Source: a virus. From it: a stretch of 40,878 nucleotides of DNA. The DNA lies in the UHGV virus genome UHGV-0182401; one strand, written 5' to 3'. Under the pieces are notes generated by a model. It saw nothing but the letters and a program-made list of their open reading frames with translations. It had not been told where the DNA came from and searched no databases. A program made the position numbers and the translations under genes. Of the stretch, positions 1 to 40,878 are shown one piece after another. The stretch's first letter is position 1, and every line of letters begins with the position of its first letter.

Positions 1-10
1 ATGGTCCTCA

Positions 11-30
11 TTCCCGCCGAAATGCGGGAA
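11..30 (+). promoter_or_regulatory. nutR boxB-like hairpin (TTCCCGC-CGAAAT-GCGGGAA)
   Basis: 7-bp stem hairpin about 13 nt downstream of boxA at the window end; same core hairpin recurs on the minus strand in nutL. Confidence 0.55.
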
Positions 31-87
31 TACAACGCGCATAAGTTGATGCGCATAACTTCTTATTTGTTAAGGAAATACTTACAT

Positions 88-366
88 ATGGAACTTACAA
101 GTACTCGCAAGAAAGCGAATGCAATTACAAGCAACATCCTAAATCGAATTGCTGTACGTGGTCAGCGAAAGGTTGCCGACGCGTTAGGGATTAATGAATC
201 GCAAATTTCGCGATGGAAAGACAGCTTCATCCCCAAAATGGGAATGCTTCTTGCTGTTCTTGAATGGGGTGTTGAAGACGAGGAGTTGGCGGAACTGGCT
301 AAGAAAGTAGCCAGAATGCTGACAAAAGAAAAAGCCCCGAAGAACGGCGAATTCTTCGAGGCCTGA
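88..366 (+). CDS. cII: CII-like transcriptional activator
   Basis: Translation from the ATG at 88 aligns along its length with remembered lambda CII (shared QISRWK and [10 protein letters not shown] motifs); AAGGAAA ribosome-binding site upstream. The 1..366 track ORF is just the open frame. Confidence 0.8.
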
Positions 367-36252: not shown

Positions 36253-36549
36253 TCAGTCATTACTGATAGCGCCATAGCGTGAGCGGTAATTACGCAGGCG
36301 CGGGTCGATATATTCAGGGAAGTGGGTATATGTGGCTTTGCGGAATGGTCGGATTGATGTCTGGTAAATTCGCTCTCGTTCTTCTTTCTCTGCAAGCCAT
36401 ATACAGTGGCGAAATTCCTTTTCTTCTTTCGTTTCCTGCGGTAGCGACATTATCCGGTCGTAGTTTTTCCTGAATTTATCCAGCACCTCCGATACGGAAT
36501 TGCCGGAACAGCGGCGCGCGTCGTCCGCACCATACAGAGGCGCTGGCAT
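36253..36549 (-). CDS. Hypothetical protein (98 aa)
   Basis: ORF with ATG start; first gene after ssb in the leftward operon. Confidence 0.45.
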   Translation of the reverse strand: MPAPLYGADDARRCSGNSVSEVLDKFRKNYDRIMSLPQETKEEKEFRHCIWLAEKEERERIYQTSIRPFRKATYTHFPEYIDPRLRNYRSRYGAISND

Positions 36550-36562
36550 GATTTTCTCCTGA

Positions 36563-37078
36563 TTAAATTGCGTGAATAGCGTGACGAGGGAAGGGGAGGG
36601 TTACTGGCGCAAAAGGTATATCGTCGTCAAACTCCATAGGTGGTTCGCTGTGATTTACCTGCTTCTGAGGCTGCTGTTTTTGTTGCTGACCGTTATTTCG
36701 CTGAGGTGAAGACTGTTCATTGCTTCCTTGCTTGCCACCAAGCATTTGCATGGTTCCACCAACGCCCACGATAACTTCGGTAGTGAACCGATCCTGTCCG
36801 CTTTGATCCTGCCATTTTCTTGTCCGCAATTTTCCTTCAAGATAAACCTCAGAGCCTTTTCGCAGATATTCGCTGGCAATTTCTGCCAGTTTCCCGCTCA
36901 TTACCACACGGTGCCACTCCGTCTGCTCCTTTTGCTCTCCAGTTTGCTTATCACGCCATTGTTCTGACGTAGCAACTATAAGGTTTGCAAATGCCGTTCC
37001 TGATGGTGAATATCTGATTTCTGGATCATGCCCAAGGCGACCAATAATGATCACCTTATTTACGCCTCTACTTCCCAT
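36563..37078 (-). CDS. ssb: Single-stranded DNA-binding protein, with a 15-aa extension beyond the canonical DDDIPF tail
   Basis: OB-fold N-terminus typical of SSB and acidic [11 protein letters not shown] near the C-terminus, followed in frame by [15 protein letters not shown] before the stop. Confidence 0.85.
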
Positions 37079-37786
37079 TTATGCCGCCTGTTTTAGTTCG
37101 TTAACTCTGATGTTCATTACCTGAACGCATTTAGCCTGCGCATCCTCATTGCCAGCCATTAATTGCCAGTCATGCTGATAACGTTCTATGAGTTTTTTCT
37201 TGTCAGTTTCTGTTGATGCATAATCGCTGAAGTCTTTCAGGATTTGTTCGCAGTCAACCGATGGAGATTTCTGGTTGGTATTTTCTGGTGATGGTTTGTT
37301 ATCTGATGCTGGGATTGCCCAGCCCGGCAGCGATGGAGGGAGCCAGTAAAATCCTGTTCCATCCTTCAGTTTTGCCCTGTGCCACCCCTGTTTTTTATCG
37401 GGAGATGTTTGTGCGAAACCTTCCTCAAGGTTATACAGATACCGACCGATTCCCCACTGAACGGCAGCGCGCTTCATTGCACCGGAACGACCACCTTTGA
37501 CGGCTTCTACCTGCGTGTTTTCAGCAGCATCCCATTTGGTTACCCATTCGGAATCAATCTTTATTGATATGCCGCATTCAACGCCGCCGTTGTTGGGAAT
37601 ATCGCGGTATTCATTGCGCCATCCTGCTTTGCCACAAACATCGTCAAGGCGTTTCATGATTGCCCGGTTCGTAACATAAGCCAGCACCATAGCCCACACC
37701 TTGCCATCGCGTGTTTTACCGCTTTGCTGTATTCGCCATTCGATATCTTCAGGGCAGAATGGCTCATCGAATTTGTTCAAATCCAT
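37079..37786 (-). CDS. Single-strand annealing recombinase (Rad52/Sak-like)
   Basis: GAMKRAAVQWGIGRYLY motif typical of Rad52-like annealing proteins; paired with ssb. Confidence 0.65.
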   Translation of the reverse strand: MDLNKFDEPFCPEDIEWRIQQSGKTRDGKVWAMVLAYVTNRAIMKRLDDVCGKAGWRNEYRDIPNNGGVECGISIKIDSEWVTKWDAAENTQVEAVKGGRSGAMKRAAVQWGIGRYLYNLEEGFAQTSPDKKQGWHRAKLKDGTGFYWLPPSLPGWAIPASDNKPSPENTNQKSPSVDCEQILKDFSDYASTETDKKKLIERYQHDWQLMAGNEDAQAKCVQVMNIRVNELKQAA

Positions 37787-37873
37787 AATTCACCTCAGAA
37801 TGGACATGGCCCAAGGAAATAACGCTGGTTTAATACTTCGACTCGGGACAAATTAAGGCATACCCGCATTCCT

Positions 37874-38044
37874 TCGCGGTCACCATTATGGCGATACCAG
37901 AGAGCTTTCTGCGTGTACATGCGTCTCTGTAACTTGCTCTCCTTCACTGTGGTTGCAAGTGACATGAATATCTCCTTCGTTACCGATTAATTCTTTCATC
38001 TGACGAATGAATTCTTCGTCTGACCAGTTATCTGTAAAACTCAT
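37874..38044 (-). CDS. Small hypothetical protein (56 aa), coupled to the kil-like gene
   Basis: ATGA overlap with the kil-like stop. An alternative 58-aa ORF in another frame with an AAGGAG site overlaps it, so the frame choice is uncertain. Confidence 0.3.
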
Positions 38045-38193
38045 TTCCTGCGATACCACGGAATGTTGATCGCTGATTTCATCGCTTTATTTGCTTCAAG
38101 CCACATTTTGGAATCACCAATAAATCTGGCTATTACTGCTTTGTTCTGTGCAGCACGAAGCATCTGGTGATTGATGGCTATTTCATTGCGCAT
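38041..38193 (-). CDS. kil: Kil-like small protein (50 aa)
   Basis: GGAGG ribosome-binding site; FIGDSKMW resembles my (uncertain) recollection of lambda Kil; position between cIII-like gene and the recombination genes matches lambda order. Confidence 0.45.
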   Translation of the reverse strand: MRNEIAINHQMLRAAQNKAVIARFIGDSKMWLEANKAMKSAINIPWYRRK

Positions 38194-38312
38194 AACGCCT
38201 CCAGTTGTTTCTTTGCTGCTCTGATTAATTGTTTAACTCGGCGTGATAATTCAGATTCGTGCGGGTAGAAAGCGGACATGACGCCGCTACCCGCGAGCTG
38301 AAAGTGCATCAT
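38178..38312 (-). CDS. cIII: CIII-like small protein (44 aa)
   Basis: AAGGAG site; ESELSRRVKQLIRAAKKQL resembles the lambda CIII central helix. Below the ORF-track cutoff. Confidence 0.5.
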   Translation of the reverse strand: MMHFQLAGSGVMSAFYPHESELSRRVKQLIRAAKKQLEALCAMK

Positions 38313-38395
38313 GGGTAACTCCTTATATTTGATTGCATAACGAAAACGCCTCGAGTGAAGCGTTATTGGTATGCGGTAAAGCCGCGCTCAGGCGG

Positions 38396-38644
38396 CTACT
38401 CTATTTCTTCTTCGAATGATTTTATTAGTCGGTCAATAACATCATCCGTTTCAATATCATTTCCGTCTGATTGCTTTAATACATCTATTGATTCTGCAGC
38501 GGTAAATTCCATCGCTGTGAGAAACTCGACAATTGCACACTCAACGACATATCGTTCTTCATCTGTACGACATGAGATAAAAGAGCATTTAATTGCTGTT
38601 ATTACTTTTTGTTTAAGCTCTGCAGGGTAATCAGTTTTTATCAT
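38396..38644 (-). CDS. Small acidic hypothetical protein (82 aa)
   Basis: ORF with GGAG site, preceded by a terminator hairpin. Confidence 0.45.
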   Translation of the reverse strand: MIKTDYPAELKQKVITAIKCSFISCRTDEERYVVECAIVEFLTAMEFTAAESIDVLKQSDGNDIETDDVIDRLIKSFEEEIE

Positions 38645-38657
38645 CGTTTACTCCGTC

Positions 38658-38686
38658 AAAAAAATTGCCCTCACATTAGAGGGCAA
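38658..38686 (-). terminator. Intrinsic terminator within the leftward early operon
   Basis: TTGCCCTC-ACATTA-GAGGGCAA hairpin followed by TTTTTTT on the minus strand, directly upstream of a gene start. Confidence 0.5.
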
Positions 38687-39050
38687 AGAAGATTTCCAAT
38701 AATCAGAACAAGTCGGCTCCTGTTTAGTTACGAGCGACATTGCTCCGTGTATTCACTCGTTGGAATGAATACACAGTGCTGTGTTTATTCTGTTATTTAT
38801 GCCAAAAATAAAGGCCACTATCAGGCAGCTTTGTTGTTCTATTAACCAAGTTCTCTGGCAATCATTGCCGTCGTTCGTATTGCCCACACCATTGATTCTT
38901 ATCAATAGTCGTAGTCATACGGATAGTCCTGGTATTGTTCCATCACATCCTGCGGATGCTCTTCGAACTCTTCAAATTCTTCTTCCATATCTCACCTCAA
39001 ATAAGTGGTTTGCTGCCAAAACAATGAACCATCCGGAAATTCCAGATAGT

Positions 39051-39278
39051 TCATAATTCACTCTTCAATACTTCCAACTTACTAATCGCCGATAGATATC
39101 CGCGCTGATAGGGCATCATCATTCCTTCGAGCTTGCCACTTCTTAACTCCTCCCTGAGCAATTGTATTGCTTGATCAATAACCTCTGCCTTAGCGTCCTT
39201 TATGGCTTGCTTGCGGGGCTTTGCTTTCTGCTTTGGCAGATTTCTCAAGCATGATGGAATGTATGTCTGATTCATCAC
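39051..39278 (-). CDS. Hypothetical early protein (75 aa)
   Basis: Immediately downstream of the N-like gene. Confidence 0.45.
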   Translation of the reverse strand: MMNQTYIPSCLRNLPKQKAKPRKQAIKDAKAEVIDQAIQLLREELRSGKLEGMMMPYQRGYLSAISKLEVLKSEL

Positions 39279-39551
39279 TTACCTGGCTGTCAGTTGTTTT
39301 GATTTCCGGTAGCCTGCCGAGTAAATGGCTACGTTTGGCAGGCAAATACTTCCACTGCATTCTTCTGCCTTCTTGCAGCGAAGGCTTCCTAGTGATGCTG
39401 CTTTATCTGCTCTGACGCAACCAGAGAGCTTTAGCGCAATTTTTCGTGACAATCGCTGTTCTTGCATTGCCTGTTCACGTTGAGCCTGTCTGCGTGCTCT
39501 GCGGCGATTTCTGGCGTTATCGTCAGCCAGATATGTAATGACTACTGTCAT
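39279..39551 (-). CDS. N: N-like transcription antiterminator (P22 gp24-like)
   Basis: Arginine-rich motif NARNRRRARRQAQREQ; C-terminus YSAGYRKSKQLTAR resembles remembered P22 gp24; first gene after pL and nutL. Confidence 0.75.
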   Translation of the reverse strand: MTVVITYLADDNARNRRRARRQAQREQAMQEQRLSRKIALKLSGCVRADKAASLGSLRCKKAEECSGSICLPNVAIYSAGYRKSKQLTAR

Positions 39552-39657
39552 GTTGACCTCCGATGATTGACTTTGGCGGTGACGCGCCGGGTGCTTATCT
39601 TCCGGTTGCCGTCGTGCAGCTGCACTTCACGTCACCCCAAAGCCAACTACTCTTTGG

Positions 39658-39700
39658 TTCCCGCATTTCGGCGGGACAATCCCATCAATGTTAAAGAGCC
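39658..39700 (-). promoter_or_regulatory. nutL: boxA (GCTCTTTAACA) plus boxB hairpin
   Basis: On the minus strand, boxA at 39689-39699 followed 11 nt later by the same TCCCGCCGAAATGCGGGA hairpin seen in nutR. Confidence 0.6.
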
Positions 39701-39745
39701 TGCCAATCTGTTCCGTTTGGCTACCAGCTTCCTGCTGATGGCTAG

Positions 39746-39774
39746 ATAATCACAAATTGTGGTCGTACTGTCAA
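39746..39774 (-). promoter_or_regulatory. Candidate pL promoter (TTGACA-N17-GATTAT) with overlapping operator-like palindrome
   Basis: Consensus -35 and reasonable -10 on the minus strand; palindrome CACAAATTGTG at 39751-39761 in the spacer. Confidence 0.45.
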
Positions 39775-39846
39775 CACGAAATGTGATTGTTTTTATCACA
39801 ACCCGTGTTTACATTGATTTTAAAGGTAATTTAATTTTCTTTGGGC

Positions 39847-39871
39847 AACAAAAAACCCGCCGAAGCGGGTT
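39847..39871 (-). terminator. Intrinsic terminator downstream of cI
   Basis: AACCCGC-CGAA-GCGGGTT hairpin followed by a T-run on the minus strand, about 25 nt after the cI stop. Confidence 0.55.
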
Positions 39872-39895
39872 TGATGTTTTTAAGTGGCGGGTATA

Positions 39896-40537
39896 TCAGG
39901 AGAATTTCATCATCATCTGCACTGCTACGCCGATTATCTTGCAGTTGCCGTCGATTGGGATCAACGGATAGGCAGGGTTAAGCCCTTTCAGGTATTTGTT
40001 ACCGCCATCAATGATTAGCTTCTTGAACGTGGCTTCATTAGCATCTGTCAGCTTCGCAACTACCAGGCTTCCATTAACGGCTTCCTTTCCAGTGTCGAAC
40101 AGAACCAGCATACCCTCAGGAACGCTAAGGCCGGTAGGAGCTGTCATTGAGTCGCCCTGAACCCTGAGCCAGAAGGCGTCACCGACAACGTGACAATCTG
40201 ATTCATACCACTCATCCACTGCCTGAGGGTTGTACGGCTCTACGGCCTCACTCCATGCACCTGCGCTAACCCAGCTAATCAACGGAAACTTTTCCCCTGG
40301 CTTGTATTGTCCCTGATAGTTGTCGCCAAAAAGCAGTTCTGCCGGAGCGACACCCAAAGCTTTAGCTATTACCTCTGCGTCATCAACACTAACGCTTCTG
40401 GTTCCTGATTCATAGTTGCCGATCCGAGATTGTGAAGCCCAGCCGCAAAGCTCCGCAAGAGCCTTCTGTGTAAGCCCTTTATCTTCCCGTAATCGCTTGA
40501 TACGCGCGGCGATAGTTTCTGTTCTGTTCATGCGCAT
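39896..40537 (-). CDS. cI: CI-type repressor (helix-turn-helix plus LexA-like S24 autocleavage domain)
   Basis: 213 aa; C-terminal domain PLISWVSAG...VQGDSMTAP...CKIIGV closely resembles remembered P22 C2; divergent from cro. Confidence 0.9.
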   Translation of the reverse strand: MRMNRTETIAARIKRLREDKGLTQKALAELCGWASQSRIGNYESGTRSVSVDDAEVIAKALGVAPAELLFGDNYQGQYKPGEKFPLISWVSAGAWSEAVEPYNPQAVDEWYESDCHVVGDAFWLRVQGDSMTAPTGLSVPEGMLVLFDTGKEAVNGSLVVAKLTDANEATFKKLIIDGGNKYLKGLNPAYPLIPIDGNCKIIGVAVQMMMKFS

Positions 40538-40579
40538 TTTATATCACATTCCGTGGTTTAAGGCTTTACACGATTTGTG

Positions 40580-40608
40580 TTGACTATCAATCACAATGTG
40601 TGTTTAAT
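40580..40608 (+). promoter_or_regulatory. Candidate pR promoter (TTGACT-N17-TTTAAT) with operator-like palindromes
   Basis: In the cI-cro intergenic region; ACACGATTTGTGT and TCACAATGTGTG nearby. Confidence 0.45.
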
Positions 40609-40641
40609 AAAGACTGAGTGAACTAGCTCTTAAGGAAACCT

Positions 40642-40857
40642 ATGAACAACATTGCCAACGAACGGAAAAAGCTTGGCATCACTCAATCTGCGTTAGCAGG
40701 CGCGTGTGGCTGGAACCAGTCCCGCTTAGCTAACTACGAGTCAGGTATCCGGACTCCAGATTTAGAGTCGTGCCGTAGCCTGGTAAAGGCGCTGAATAAA
40801 TTGGGGAGCAAGACAACGCTAGATGGCTTGTTCCCGCCGCGTAAGAACGCCGCATAA
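40642..40857 (+). CDS. cro: Cro-like helix-turn-helix regulator
   Basis: 71 aa XRE-type helix-turn-helix (LGITQSALAGACGWNQSRLANYESG), divergent from cI. Confidence 0.7.
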   Translation: MNNIANERKKLGITQSALAGACGWNQSRLANYESGIRTPDLESCRSLVKALNKLGSKTTLDGLFPPRKNAA

Positions 40858-40863
40858 GCAAAT

Positions 40864-40875
40864 TGCTCTTTAACA
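40864..40875 (+). promoter_or_regulatory. nutR boxA (TGCTCTTTAACA)
   Basis: Matches the rrn-type boxA consensus as remembered; its boxB partner is at positions 11-30. Confidence 0.55.
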
Positions 40876-40878
40876 GTC

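Follow-up and report, generated by a model that had tools for sequence, protein, structure and literature searches.

Two classes of CIII protein have been described in lambdoid phages, one lambda-like and the other HK022-like, with the proteins of HK022, HK97 and H-19B being identical to one another (Kobiler et al. 2007, PMC1838920). Lambda CIII is a competitive inhibitor of FtsH and at the same time one of its degradation substrates, and a conserved 24-residue amphipathic region constitutes the essential, sufficient and active part of the protein (PMC1838920). Lambda Kil disrupts FtsZ-ring assembly in a ZipA-dependent manner, causing filamentation (PMC3961180; PMC11762379). A helix-turn-helix hairpin with a G19-D20 turn is essential in this protein, and an RSK/RSSK C-terminal motif occurs in nearly all lambda Kil homologues, where it is suspected to be functionally important (Naha et al. 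2025, PMC11762379); the same paper presents the motif as a common feature and not as a strict requirement (PMC11762379).

Herein, we compare with these systems a segment of a 40,878-nt stretch of DNA (the window, i.e., the whole stretch analysed), which represents the complete genome of a mosaic, temperate lambdoid phage. With a probability of roughly 0.88, we consider this segment to be the cIII-kil portion of the phage's leftward early (pL) operon, in the allelic form carried by HK022 and HK97. The original prediction had placed a cIII-like and a kil-like gene, followed by one or two further small ORFs, on the minus strand between positions 37874 and 38312. Both genes are present there, as are two further ORFs; the range encloses the ORFs of 44, 50 and 52 aa together with the start of one of 56 aa, its lower end (37874) falling 12 nt past the stop codon of the third.

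Layout of the leftward operon

On the minus strand, from 38800 to 37500, the window carries a tight run of small ORFs, four of which lie downstream of N and of two terminator-like hairpins. The operon order is that of lambda, i.e., pL, nutL, N, terminators, cIII overlapping kil, and recombination genes. The window also holds CII, CI, Cro, O-like and DnaB-like genes. Its features are as follows:

88..366, plus strand: cII gene (Pfam PF05269 Phage_CII, E=1.2e-42, full length)
40642..40857, plus strand: Cro-type HTH protein
40537..39896, minus strand: CI-type repressor
39774..39746, minus strand: pL-like promoter TTGACA-17-GATTAT (promoter scan, 10/12 match, extended-10 TG)
Downstream of the pL-like promoter, minus strand: nutL-like site, with boxA-like GCTCTTTAA and a boxB-like hairpin (found by eye)
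39551..39279, minus strand: N antiterminator gene (Pfam PF25694 N_peptide, E=2.3e-15; Shine-Dalgarno duplex -10.2 kcal/mol)
38644..38396, minus strand: ral-like anti-restriction ORF of 82 aa, upstream neighbour of cIII (phrog_14587, E=2e-48)
38397..38380 and 38364..38345, minus strand: two terminator-like hairpins between the ral-like gene and cIII (terminator scan and RNA fold)
38312..38178, minus strand: cIII of the HK022 class, 44 aa, MMHFQLAGSGVMSAFYPHESELSRRVKQLIRAAKKQLEALCAMK (MMHFQLAGSG...CAMK; Pfam PF08134, phrog_550)
38193..38041, minus strand: kil of the lambda-Kil family, 50 aa (Pfam PF06301, phrog_2055)
38044..37886, minus strand: HK97 gp42.1-like ORF, 52 aa from its ATG, which overlaps the kil stop (phrog_2123, E=9e-42)
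37965..37795, minus strand: HK97 gp42-like ORF, 56 aa, with a strong Shine-Dalgarno sequence (phrog_1723, E=9e-36)
37786..37079, minus strand: Rad52/22-type single-strand annealing protein, 235 aa (Pfam PF04098, E=5.6e-25)
37078..36563, minus strand: SSB, directly after the annealase (Pfam PF00436, E=1.4e-37)

In HK97, a putative terminator is annotated where the window has its hairpins before cIII. The counterpart of the 82-aa ORF in Escherichia phage ECP1 is annotated as "antirestriction protein ral". An Rfam scan of positions 36500-40878 at E<=1 returned no RNA element that would explain the region, its sole match (mir-15, 18 bits) being due to chance, and an NCBIfam scan returned no model matching any of the four small ORFs.

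The four ORFs are missing from the ORF track solely because of its 60-aa cut-off, as the original prediction had pointed out, and public annotation already carries cIII and kil. The DNA from 37700 to 38700 is 100% identical to that of ECP1 and 94-99% identical to that of HK106, HK97, HK022, H-19B and many Stx phages, in which cIII and kil are annotated. Likeness to ECP1 is confined to the early-left region; the structural genes of the window resemble those of other phages, and the window is thus distinct from ECP1. Annotation of these small genes varies between records: the ECP1 GenBank entry attaches "cIII protein" to the gp42-like ORF, with the genuine cIII and kil entered as "hypothetical", and the RefSeq PGAP annotation names kil and leaves the HK022-class CIII as "hypothetical".

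Relatives and mosaic junctions

As a set of relatives, 80 IMG/VR loci encoding the same Kil were projected onto the window; a search of viral contigs with an alignment of the window and lambda Kil proteins gave the same near-identical loci and no further diversity. Blocks of homology end at fixed points, i.e., at ~38374 (between the hairpins), 38195 (the start of kil), 37995 and, where the 56-aa ORF ends, 37794, and these fixed block ends are mosaic junctions. In 28 of 85 related sequences, a lambda/P22-class cIII (MIYAIAGGARMGAFQLNESLLERITRKLRDGWKR) has been joined to the same terminal codons (..LLCAMK) and the same kil. The two cIII classes have thus been swapped naturally in one slot on the same kil, which supports their functional equivalence. 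Of 5426 complete E. coli genomes, 2057 (about 38%) carry parts of the segment.

Translation signals and gene overlaps

Duplex energies with the anti-Shine-Dalgarno (anti-SD) sequence were computed and set against a background of 1445 ATGs in the window (mean -2.3 kcal/mol, with 3.6% reaching -7). Three of the four small ORFs have strong SD sequences:

38324..38319, minus strand: SD AAGGAG of cIII (-8.8 kcal/mol), 6 nt before the ATG
38202..38198, minus strand: SD GGAGG of kil (-9.3 kcal/mol), within the cIII coding sequence
37977..37972, minus strand: SD AAGGAG of the gp42-like ORF (-8.8 kcal/mol)

The values for cIII and kil bear out the strong ribosome-binding sites that had been read by hand for these two genes. 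In the predicted mRNA fold, the cIII SD is unpaired; the cIII leader is predicted to form hairpins plus an intragenic stem (z=-2.46), in a sequence that is invariant among the relatives. The gp42.1-like ORF has no usable SD, its duplex energy (-2.8 kcal/mol) being that of the ATG background. As for the overlapping stop and start codons that had also been proposed, these occur between kil and the third ORF, as a 4-nt ATGA that is conserved, but not between cIII and kil, which share a 16-nt out-of-frame overlap (GGAGGCGTTATGCGCAATGAAATAG) with the kil ATG lying 13 nt upstream of the cIII TAG.

The cIII gene

The 44-aa ORF matches the Pfam PF08134 "cIII protein family" over all 37 profile positions (E=2e-30; 104.7 bits, the cut-off being 25) and phrog_550 (CIII) at E=2.6e-13. 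By these matches, which in the curated profile lie well above threshold, its assignment as a CIII protein is supported. All 44 residues are identical to those of CIII from HK022 and HK97 (44/44), and the gene occupies the location seen in HK97, HK022 and lambda, i.e., in the pL operon, downstream of N and with its 3' end overlapping kil. The CIII proteins of HK022, HK97 and H-19B share with it the same 44 aa, the same slot after N and a terminator, and the same 16-nt overlap with kil; with no detectable difference, it is the same allele in another mosaic genome. As Kobiler et al. (2007) describe the HK022 class, the CIII of the window is an already described protein.

Against the lambda-class profile PF02061, the ORF scores 12.4 bits, under the cut-off of 25.7 (E=0.17), and BLASTP yields no alignment between the window and lambda CIII proteins; it was therefore assigned to the HK022 class and not to the lambda class. 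Lambda CIII (54 aa) occupies the same operon slot in a phage that likewise encodes CII, and it has the same kind of kil overlap, amphipathic region and N-terminal glycines, with the window protein being 10 residues shorter and devoid of the lambda C-terminal tail. When anchored on the common ES motif, the window CIII is identical to lambda residues 14-37 at 9 of 24 positions, and its ES.L.R...L....K..L..L pattern and N-terminal AG..G align with both lambda and P22 CIII. Residues 21-38 form an amphipathic helix with a hydrophobic moment (muH) of 0.72, a value reached by none of 2000 shuffles (0/2000), and the maximum of this moment falls at the same place in the window, lambda and P22 proteins. 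Variable sites among the relatives lie mostly at codon position 3 (6/9), a selection signal that is weak owing to the low diversity of the sample, which has just these 9 sites.

The kil gene

The 50-aa ORF matches Pfam PF06301 Lambda_Kil over all 31 profile positions (E=1.7e-20; 72.6 bits, the cut-off being 27.6) and phrog_2055 (Kil) at E=3e-35; the curated-profile match, again well above threshold, supports the assignment of this ORF as a Kil protein. Scores of this size put cIII and kil far outside what chance ORFs would give. It is identical to the Kil of HK022 and HK97 at 49 of 50 residues, the difference being I44 instead of L44. BLASTP aligns it with the core of lambda Kil at 17 of 30 identical residues (57%, E=3e-9), the FIGD.KM turn included. 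Purifying selection on kil is clear, with 13 of 15 variable sites among the loci of the relatives at codon position 3.

AlphaFold2 prediction from the single sequence gives a helix (residues 2-25), a turn at G26-D27 and a second helix (residues 28-41), with a mean pLDDT of 85; G26-D27 aligns with G19-D20 of lambda. Lambda Kil (47 aa) thus has in common with the window protein the core, the FIGD.KM turn and the predicted helix-GD-helix hairpin, and its gene likewise overlaps the 3' end of cIII. The two differ at their termini: the N-terminus of the window Kil is 7 residues longer, and its tail reads IPWYRRK as opposed to the RSSK-containing tail of lambda. The C-terminus of the window protein (SAINIPWYRRK) is basic, and the RSK/RSSK motif is absent from it. 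We found no filamentation test on an HK022-type Kil in the literature.

Two further small ORFs

HK97/HK022 gp42.1 and gp42 and Sf6 genes 29-31, all annotated as hypothetical, have products 88-100% identical to the third and fourth ORFs; as with cIII and kil, PHROG families match both ORFs.

The third, gp42.1-like ORF would be 57 aa long if begun at an upstream GTG, for which there is no SD. Only its first 16 aa, MSFTDNWSDEEFIRQM, are conserved; these are invariant ahead of three downstream modules, i.e., gp42 plus Erf, gp42 plus a Rad52-type annealase, and a 103-aa ORF plus RecT. C-terminal variants of 35, 44, 52, 56 and 60 aa follow one and the same N-terminus, with lengths of up to 83 aa among the relatives. 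In the part of the frame that does not overlap the fourth ORF, there is no codon-position signature (0, 7 and 6 variable sites at positions 1, 2 and 3, respectively), and in the overlap with gp42, 14 of 15 variable sites are nonsynonymous in the gp42.1-like frame. The recurrent polymorphisms are synonymous or conservative (F3F, N6S, M16I, E18D and I26M). The third ORF is probably translated by coupling to kil via the ATGA overlap, judging from the layout, and probably only its N-terminal ~16-25 residues matter.

The nearest named counterpart of this ORF is P22 Arf (accessory recombination function; 47 aa, Pfam PF17585), which starts with MQHEFSDEEFIALI and has the motif (F/W)SDEEFI in common with it. 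The P22 arf gene, small and encoding an acidic product, likewise follows a gene called kil, precedes erf and overlaps the end of the preceding gene; however, the "kil" ahead of P22 arf is unrelated to the lambda-family Kil, and the conserved gp42.1-like N-terminus accompanies kil no matter whether the recombinase that comes next is Erf, Rad52-type or RecT. PF17585 matched neither the 57-aa form (E<=1) nor the 35-aa form (E<=0.01), with the P22 Arf control scoring 121 bits; against phrog_2445 Arf, the ORF reached only E=0.044, and hhalign against Arf gave a weak match (P=0.0012, probability 19%) over 19 columns centred on SDEEFI. "Arf-like" may thus be a weak lead for this ORF, as opposed to a statement of family membership. 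The molecular function of Arf itself is not established (PMC12315714). An nr entry 90% identical to the gp42.1-like ORF bears the depositor's name "accessory recombination function protein".

The fourth, gp42-like ORF shares 80 nt with the third, read in a different frame. Its 35 homologues (65-100% identity) have a variable middle and an invariant C-terminus, NQRYFLGPCPF, and its frame shows an excess of variation at codon position 3, the overlap included (9 of 15 sites there being synonymous). AlphaFold2 models it as a two-helix hairpin (pLDDT 92), for which the Foldseek matches in the PDB were all to generic helical hairpins or designed binders, the best having E=0.6. It is a genuine conserved family, independently initiated, with a predicted helical-hairpin fold.

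Other readings of these two ORFs were set aside. The "recombinase" label of phrog_2123 and phrog_1723 has no counterpart in a Pfam or NCBIfam domain in either ORF (52 and 56 aa), and it probably derives from the neighbouring genes. The gp42-like ORF and Kil are both ~50-aa hairpins with a G-D turn; as candidate paralogues, they gave an hhalign probability of 1.9%, and neither the Pfam nor the PHROG search linked the two. The gp42.1 of HK97 is an 83-aa protein in which a 2-nt length difference has joined the gp42.1 and gp42 frames, and public databases hold 81-83-aa fusions whose junctions lie at many positions, mostly in singleton clusters; indel mutations or assembly errors explain these better than does a programmed frameshift at a slippery site.

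Discussion

Taking the segment as cIII-kil of the HK022/HK97 form, the course of events would be that of a lambda-type leftward operon. Transcription from pL would cross the nutL-like site and the N gene, and N antitermination would then permit read-through of the hairpins after the ral-like gene into cIII, kil, the two small ORFs, the annealase and SSB; from the layout, cIII and kil would be N-dependent delayed-early genes. By homology with its lambda counterpart, CIII would act as an oligomeric amphipathic helix that is both a competitive inhibitor and a substrate of the host FtsH, and inhibition of FtsH would transiently stabilise CII, thus favouring lysogeny. The Kil hairpin would, again by homology, block assembly of the FtsZ ring in a ZipA-dependent manner and lead to filamentation during lytic growth or induction. 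FtsH as the target of CIII and FtsZ as that of Kil, which the original prediction had drawn from lambda, are targets assigned here by homology as well. For the HK022-class CIII, the lambda mechanism is one that we infer, because the protein is too diverged from lambda CIII for BLASTP and falls below the Pfam lambda-CIII cut-off.

This same divergence from lambda, together with the PGAP label "hypothetical protein" and the want of an NCBIfam model, would suit the idea that the HK022-class "CIII" acts unlike lambda CIII, e.g., on another protease or as a membrane peptide, such that its name is misleading. We consider this very improbable, given that (i) the ES.L.R...L....K..L..L pattern and the AG..G residues have aligned counterparts in the CIII proteins of lambda and P22, (ii) the amphipathic helix lies at the same place, (iii) natural chimeras exchange the N-terminal parts of both classes on the same C-terminus and the same kil, and (iv) Kobiler et al. 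treat both as CIII classes with a common essential region (PMC1838920). More improbable still is that a defective prophage carries these ORFs as decaying relics of cIII and kil that have lost expression or function. Fragments of the region are indeed found among complete E. coli genomes (2057 of 5426), many of them likely to represent cryptic prophages, an IS903B insertion adjoins the region in one relative, and singleton nonsense and missense variants of the third ORF are found among the relatives. However, the four ORFs and their SDs are intact in the window, the viable phages HK022 and HK97 have the very same CIII and a Kil that is one residue off, the surrounding genome holds a complete set of regulatory genes (cII, cI, cro, N, O-like and DnaB-like), and variation in kil is nearly all synonymous. 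Kornitzer et al. reportedly carried out a functional comparison of the lambda, P22 and HK022 CIII proteins in 1991 (PNAS 88:5217).

The third ORF invites a more serious doubt, i.e., that it is a by-product encoding no functional protein, with its kil-coupled translation merely delivering ribosomes towards gp42 and the recombinase. We regard this as a credible prospect that nonetheless falls short of being probable. The ORF has background-level SD pairing (-2.8 kcal/mol) and no codon-position signature, its overlap with gp42 is nonsynonymous at 14 of 15 sites in its own frame, its length varies from 35 to 83 aa with a premature stop in one relative, and the annotators of ECP1 did not call it. 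Yet its 16 N-terminal residues stay the same ahead of at least three different downstream modules, recurrent polymorphisms either are synonymous or make conservative changes, the ATGA shared with kil is conserved, the ORF matches P22 Arf in its SDEEFI motif and in its position, and both PGAP and the annotators of HK97 and HK022 did call it.

There is nothing new in the finding of cIII and kil as such, since identical or near-identical proteins are known in HK022 and HK97; genes of this type have been in the literature since those sequences were published, and both have Pfam families. At the level of annotation, ORF tracks with a 60-aa floor miss a run of four pL-operon genes, each of them real or probable. 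A speculative and rather unlikely extension is that the third and fourth ORFs are host- or recombination-directed micro-proteins, with MSFTDNWSDEEFIRQM as an Arf-type accessory peptide and the fourth ORF as a second effector. Were this so, the MSFTDNWSDEEFIRQM peptide would travel with kil and work with any annealase that follows (Erf, Rad52-type or RecT), and the gp42-like hairpin with its NQRYFLGPCPF end would constitute a second small effector of the operon.

Mosaic junctions around kil

In 28 of the 85 related sequences, the N-terminal part of a lambda/P22-class cIII (…ESLLERITRKLRDGWKR) is fused to the last codons …LLCAMK, accompanied by the same HK022-type kil as in the window. Carriers include the related loci L015, L017, L019, L020, L026, L029, L030, L032, L036, L059, and L065, as well as others. 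Judged from their sequences, these lambda-class cIII genes on an HK022-type kil are natural chimeras, with the mosaic junction located ~2 nt 5' of the kil ATG, in the following region:

38178-38200, minus strand: cIII/kil overlap, chimera junction region

The chimeric lambda-class CIII is 41–43 aa long and, compared to lambda CIII, is missing the entire C-terminal tail. In HK022 itself, IS903 is found directly 5' of cIII.

The invariant first 16 residues of the third ORF (gp42.1-like, after the HK97 gene; MSFTDNWSDEEFIRQM, window 37996-38044) are part of the same mosaic module as kil. Downstream of this N-terminus, three different recombinase modules are encountered, namely Erf, Rad52-type, and RecT. 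The third ORF also has an SDEEFI motif in common with P22 Arf, the genomic position of which is equal; when the two profiles are aligned, hhalign assigns a probability of 19% (P=0.0012 over 19 columns). In the prophage of E. coli ETEC1722 (NZ_CP122844.1 1395454-1396422), an IS903B transposase gene separates the gp42.1-like ORF from the Rad52-type annealase gene; no gp42-like ORF is annotated between the two.

Overlapping gp42.1-like and gp42-like frames

The third ORF, of 52 aa, overlaps the fourth, a 56-aa gp42-like ORF:

37886-37965, minus strand: gp42.1-like/gp42-like ORF overlap, 80 nt, out-of-frame

The overlap holds 15 substitutions, 9 of them synonymous in the gp42-like frame; read in the gp42.1-like frame, 14 of the 15 are nonsynonymous. 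The upstream (gp42.1-like) ORF thus looks unconstrained in its tail. In HK97, the two frames are joined into 83 aa through a 2-nt length difference. Fusions of 81–82 aa are numerous in public assemblies and have differing junction positions; these most likely reflect indels as opposed to programmed frameshifting.

The gp42-like protein (window 37795-37965) is a conserved micro-protein of enterobacterial phages, with an invariant C-terminal NQRYFLGPCPF and a confident AF2 prediction of a helical hairpin with an N-G-D turn. No known domain was found in it in Pfam or NCBIfam. The PHROG label "recombinase" is unsupported for this protein.

Annotation of public records and window ends

The closest public record, ECP1 (KY979108.1 36853-37370, corresponding to window 37795-38312), contains an annotation error at cIII/kil: ECP1_054, named "cIII protein," is the gp42-like ORF; the true cIII (ECP1_056) and true kil (ECP1_055) are each a "hypothetical protein"; and the gp42.1-like ORF is uncalled. 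For the ETEC1722 prophage, RefSeq PGAP names kil and leaves the HK022-class cIII "hypothetical."

The window starts within the early-right operon (window 1-366, plus strand), and cro (40642..40857) sits at the opposite end; the window is thus a whole phage genome, either circularly permuted or cut. The listed ORF 1..366 is an artificial N-terminal extension of cII, the real cII (plus strand) being 92 aa, with an ATG start at 88 and a full-length PF05269 match. Between pL and N, a nutL-like site was recognized by eye only (window 39655-39700, minus strand), made up of a boxA-like GCTCTTTAA and, 3' of it, the boxB-like hairpin CCCGC-CGAAAT-GCGGG.

Predicted structure of the cIII leader

The cIII leader mRNA (window 38230-38400, minus strand; fold z-score −2.46) is predicted to form two hairpins 3' of the ral-like stop, the second being terminator-like with a U-rich tail. 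The predicted fold leaves the cIII SD unpaired and places a strong stem, GCGGGUAG/CUACCCGC, within cIII codons 7–18. The leader is without variation among relatives, precluding any covariation signal. Translation of lambda cIII is structure-dependent, and the modelled fold could tie in with cIII translation of this lambda type.
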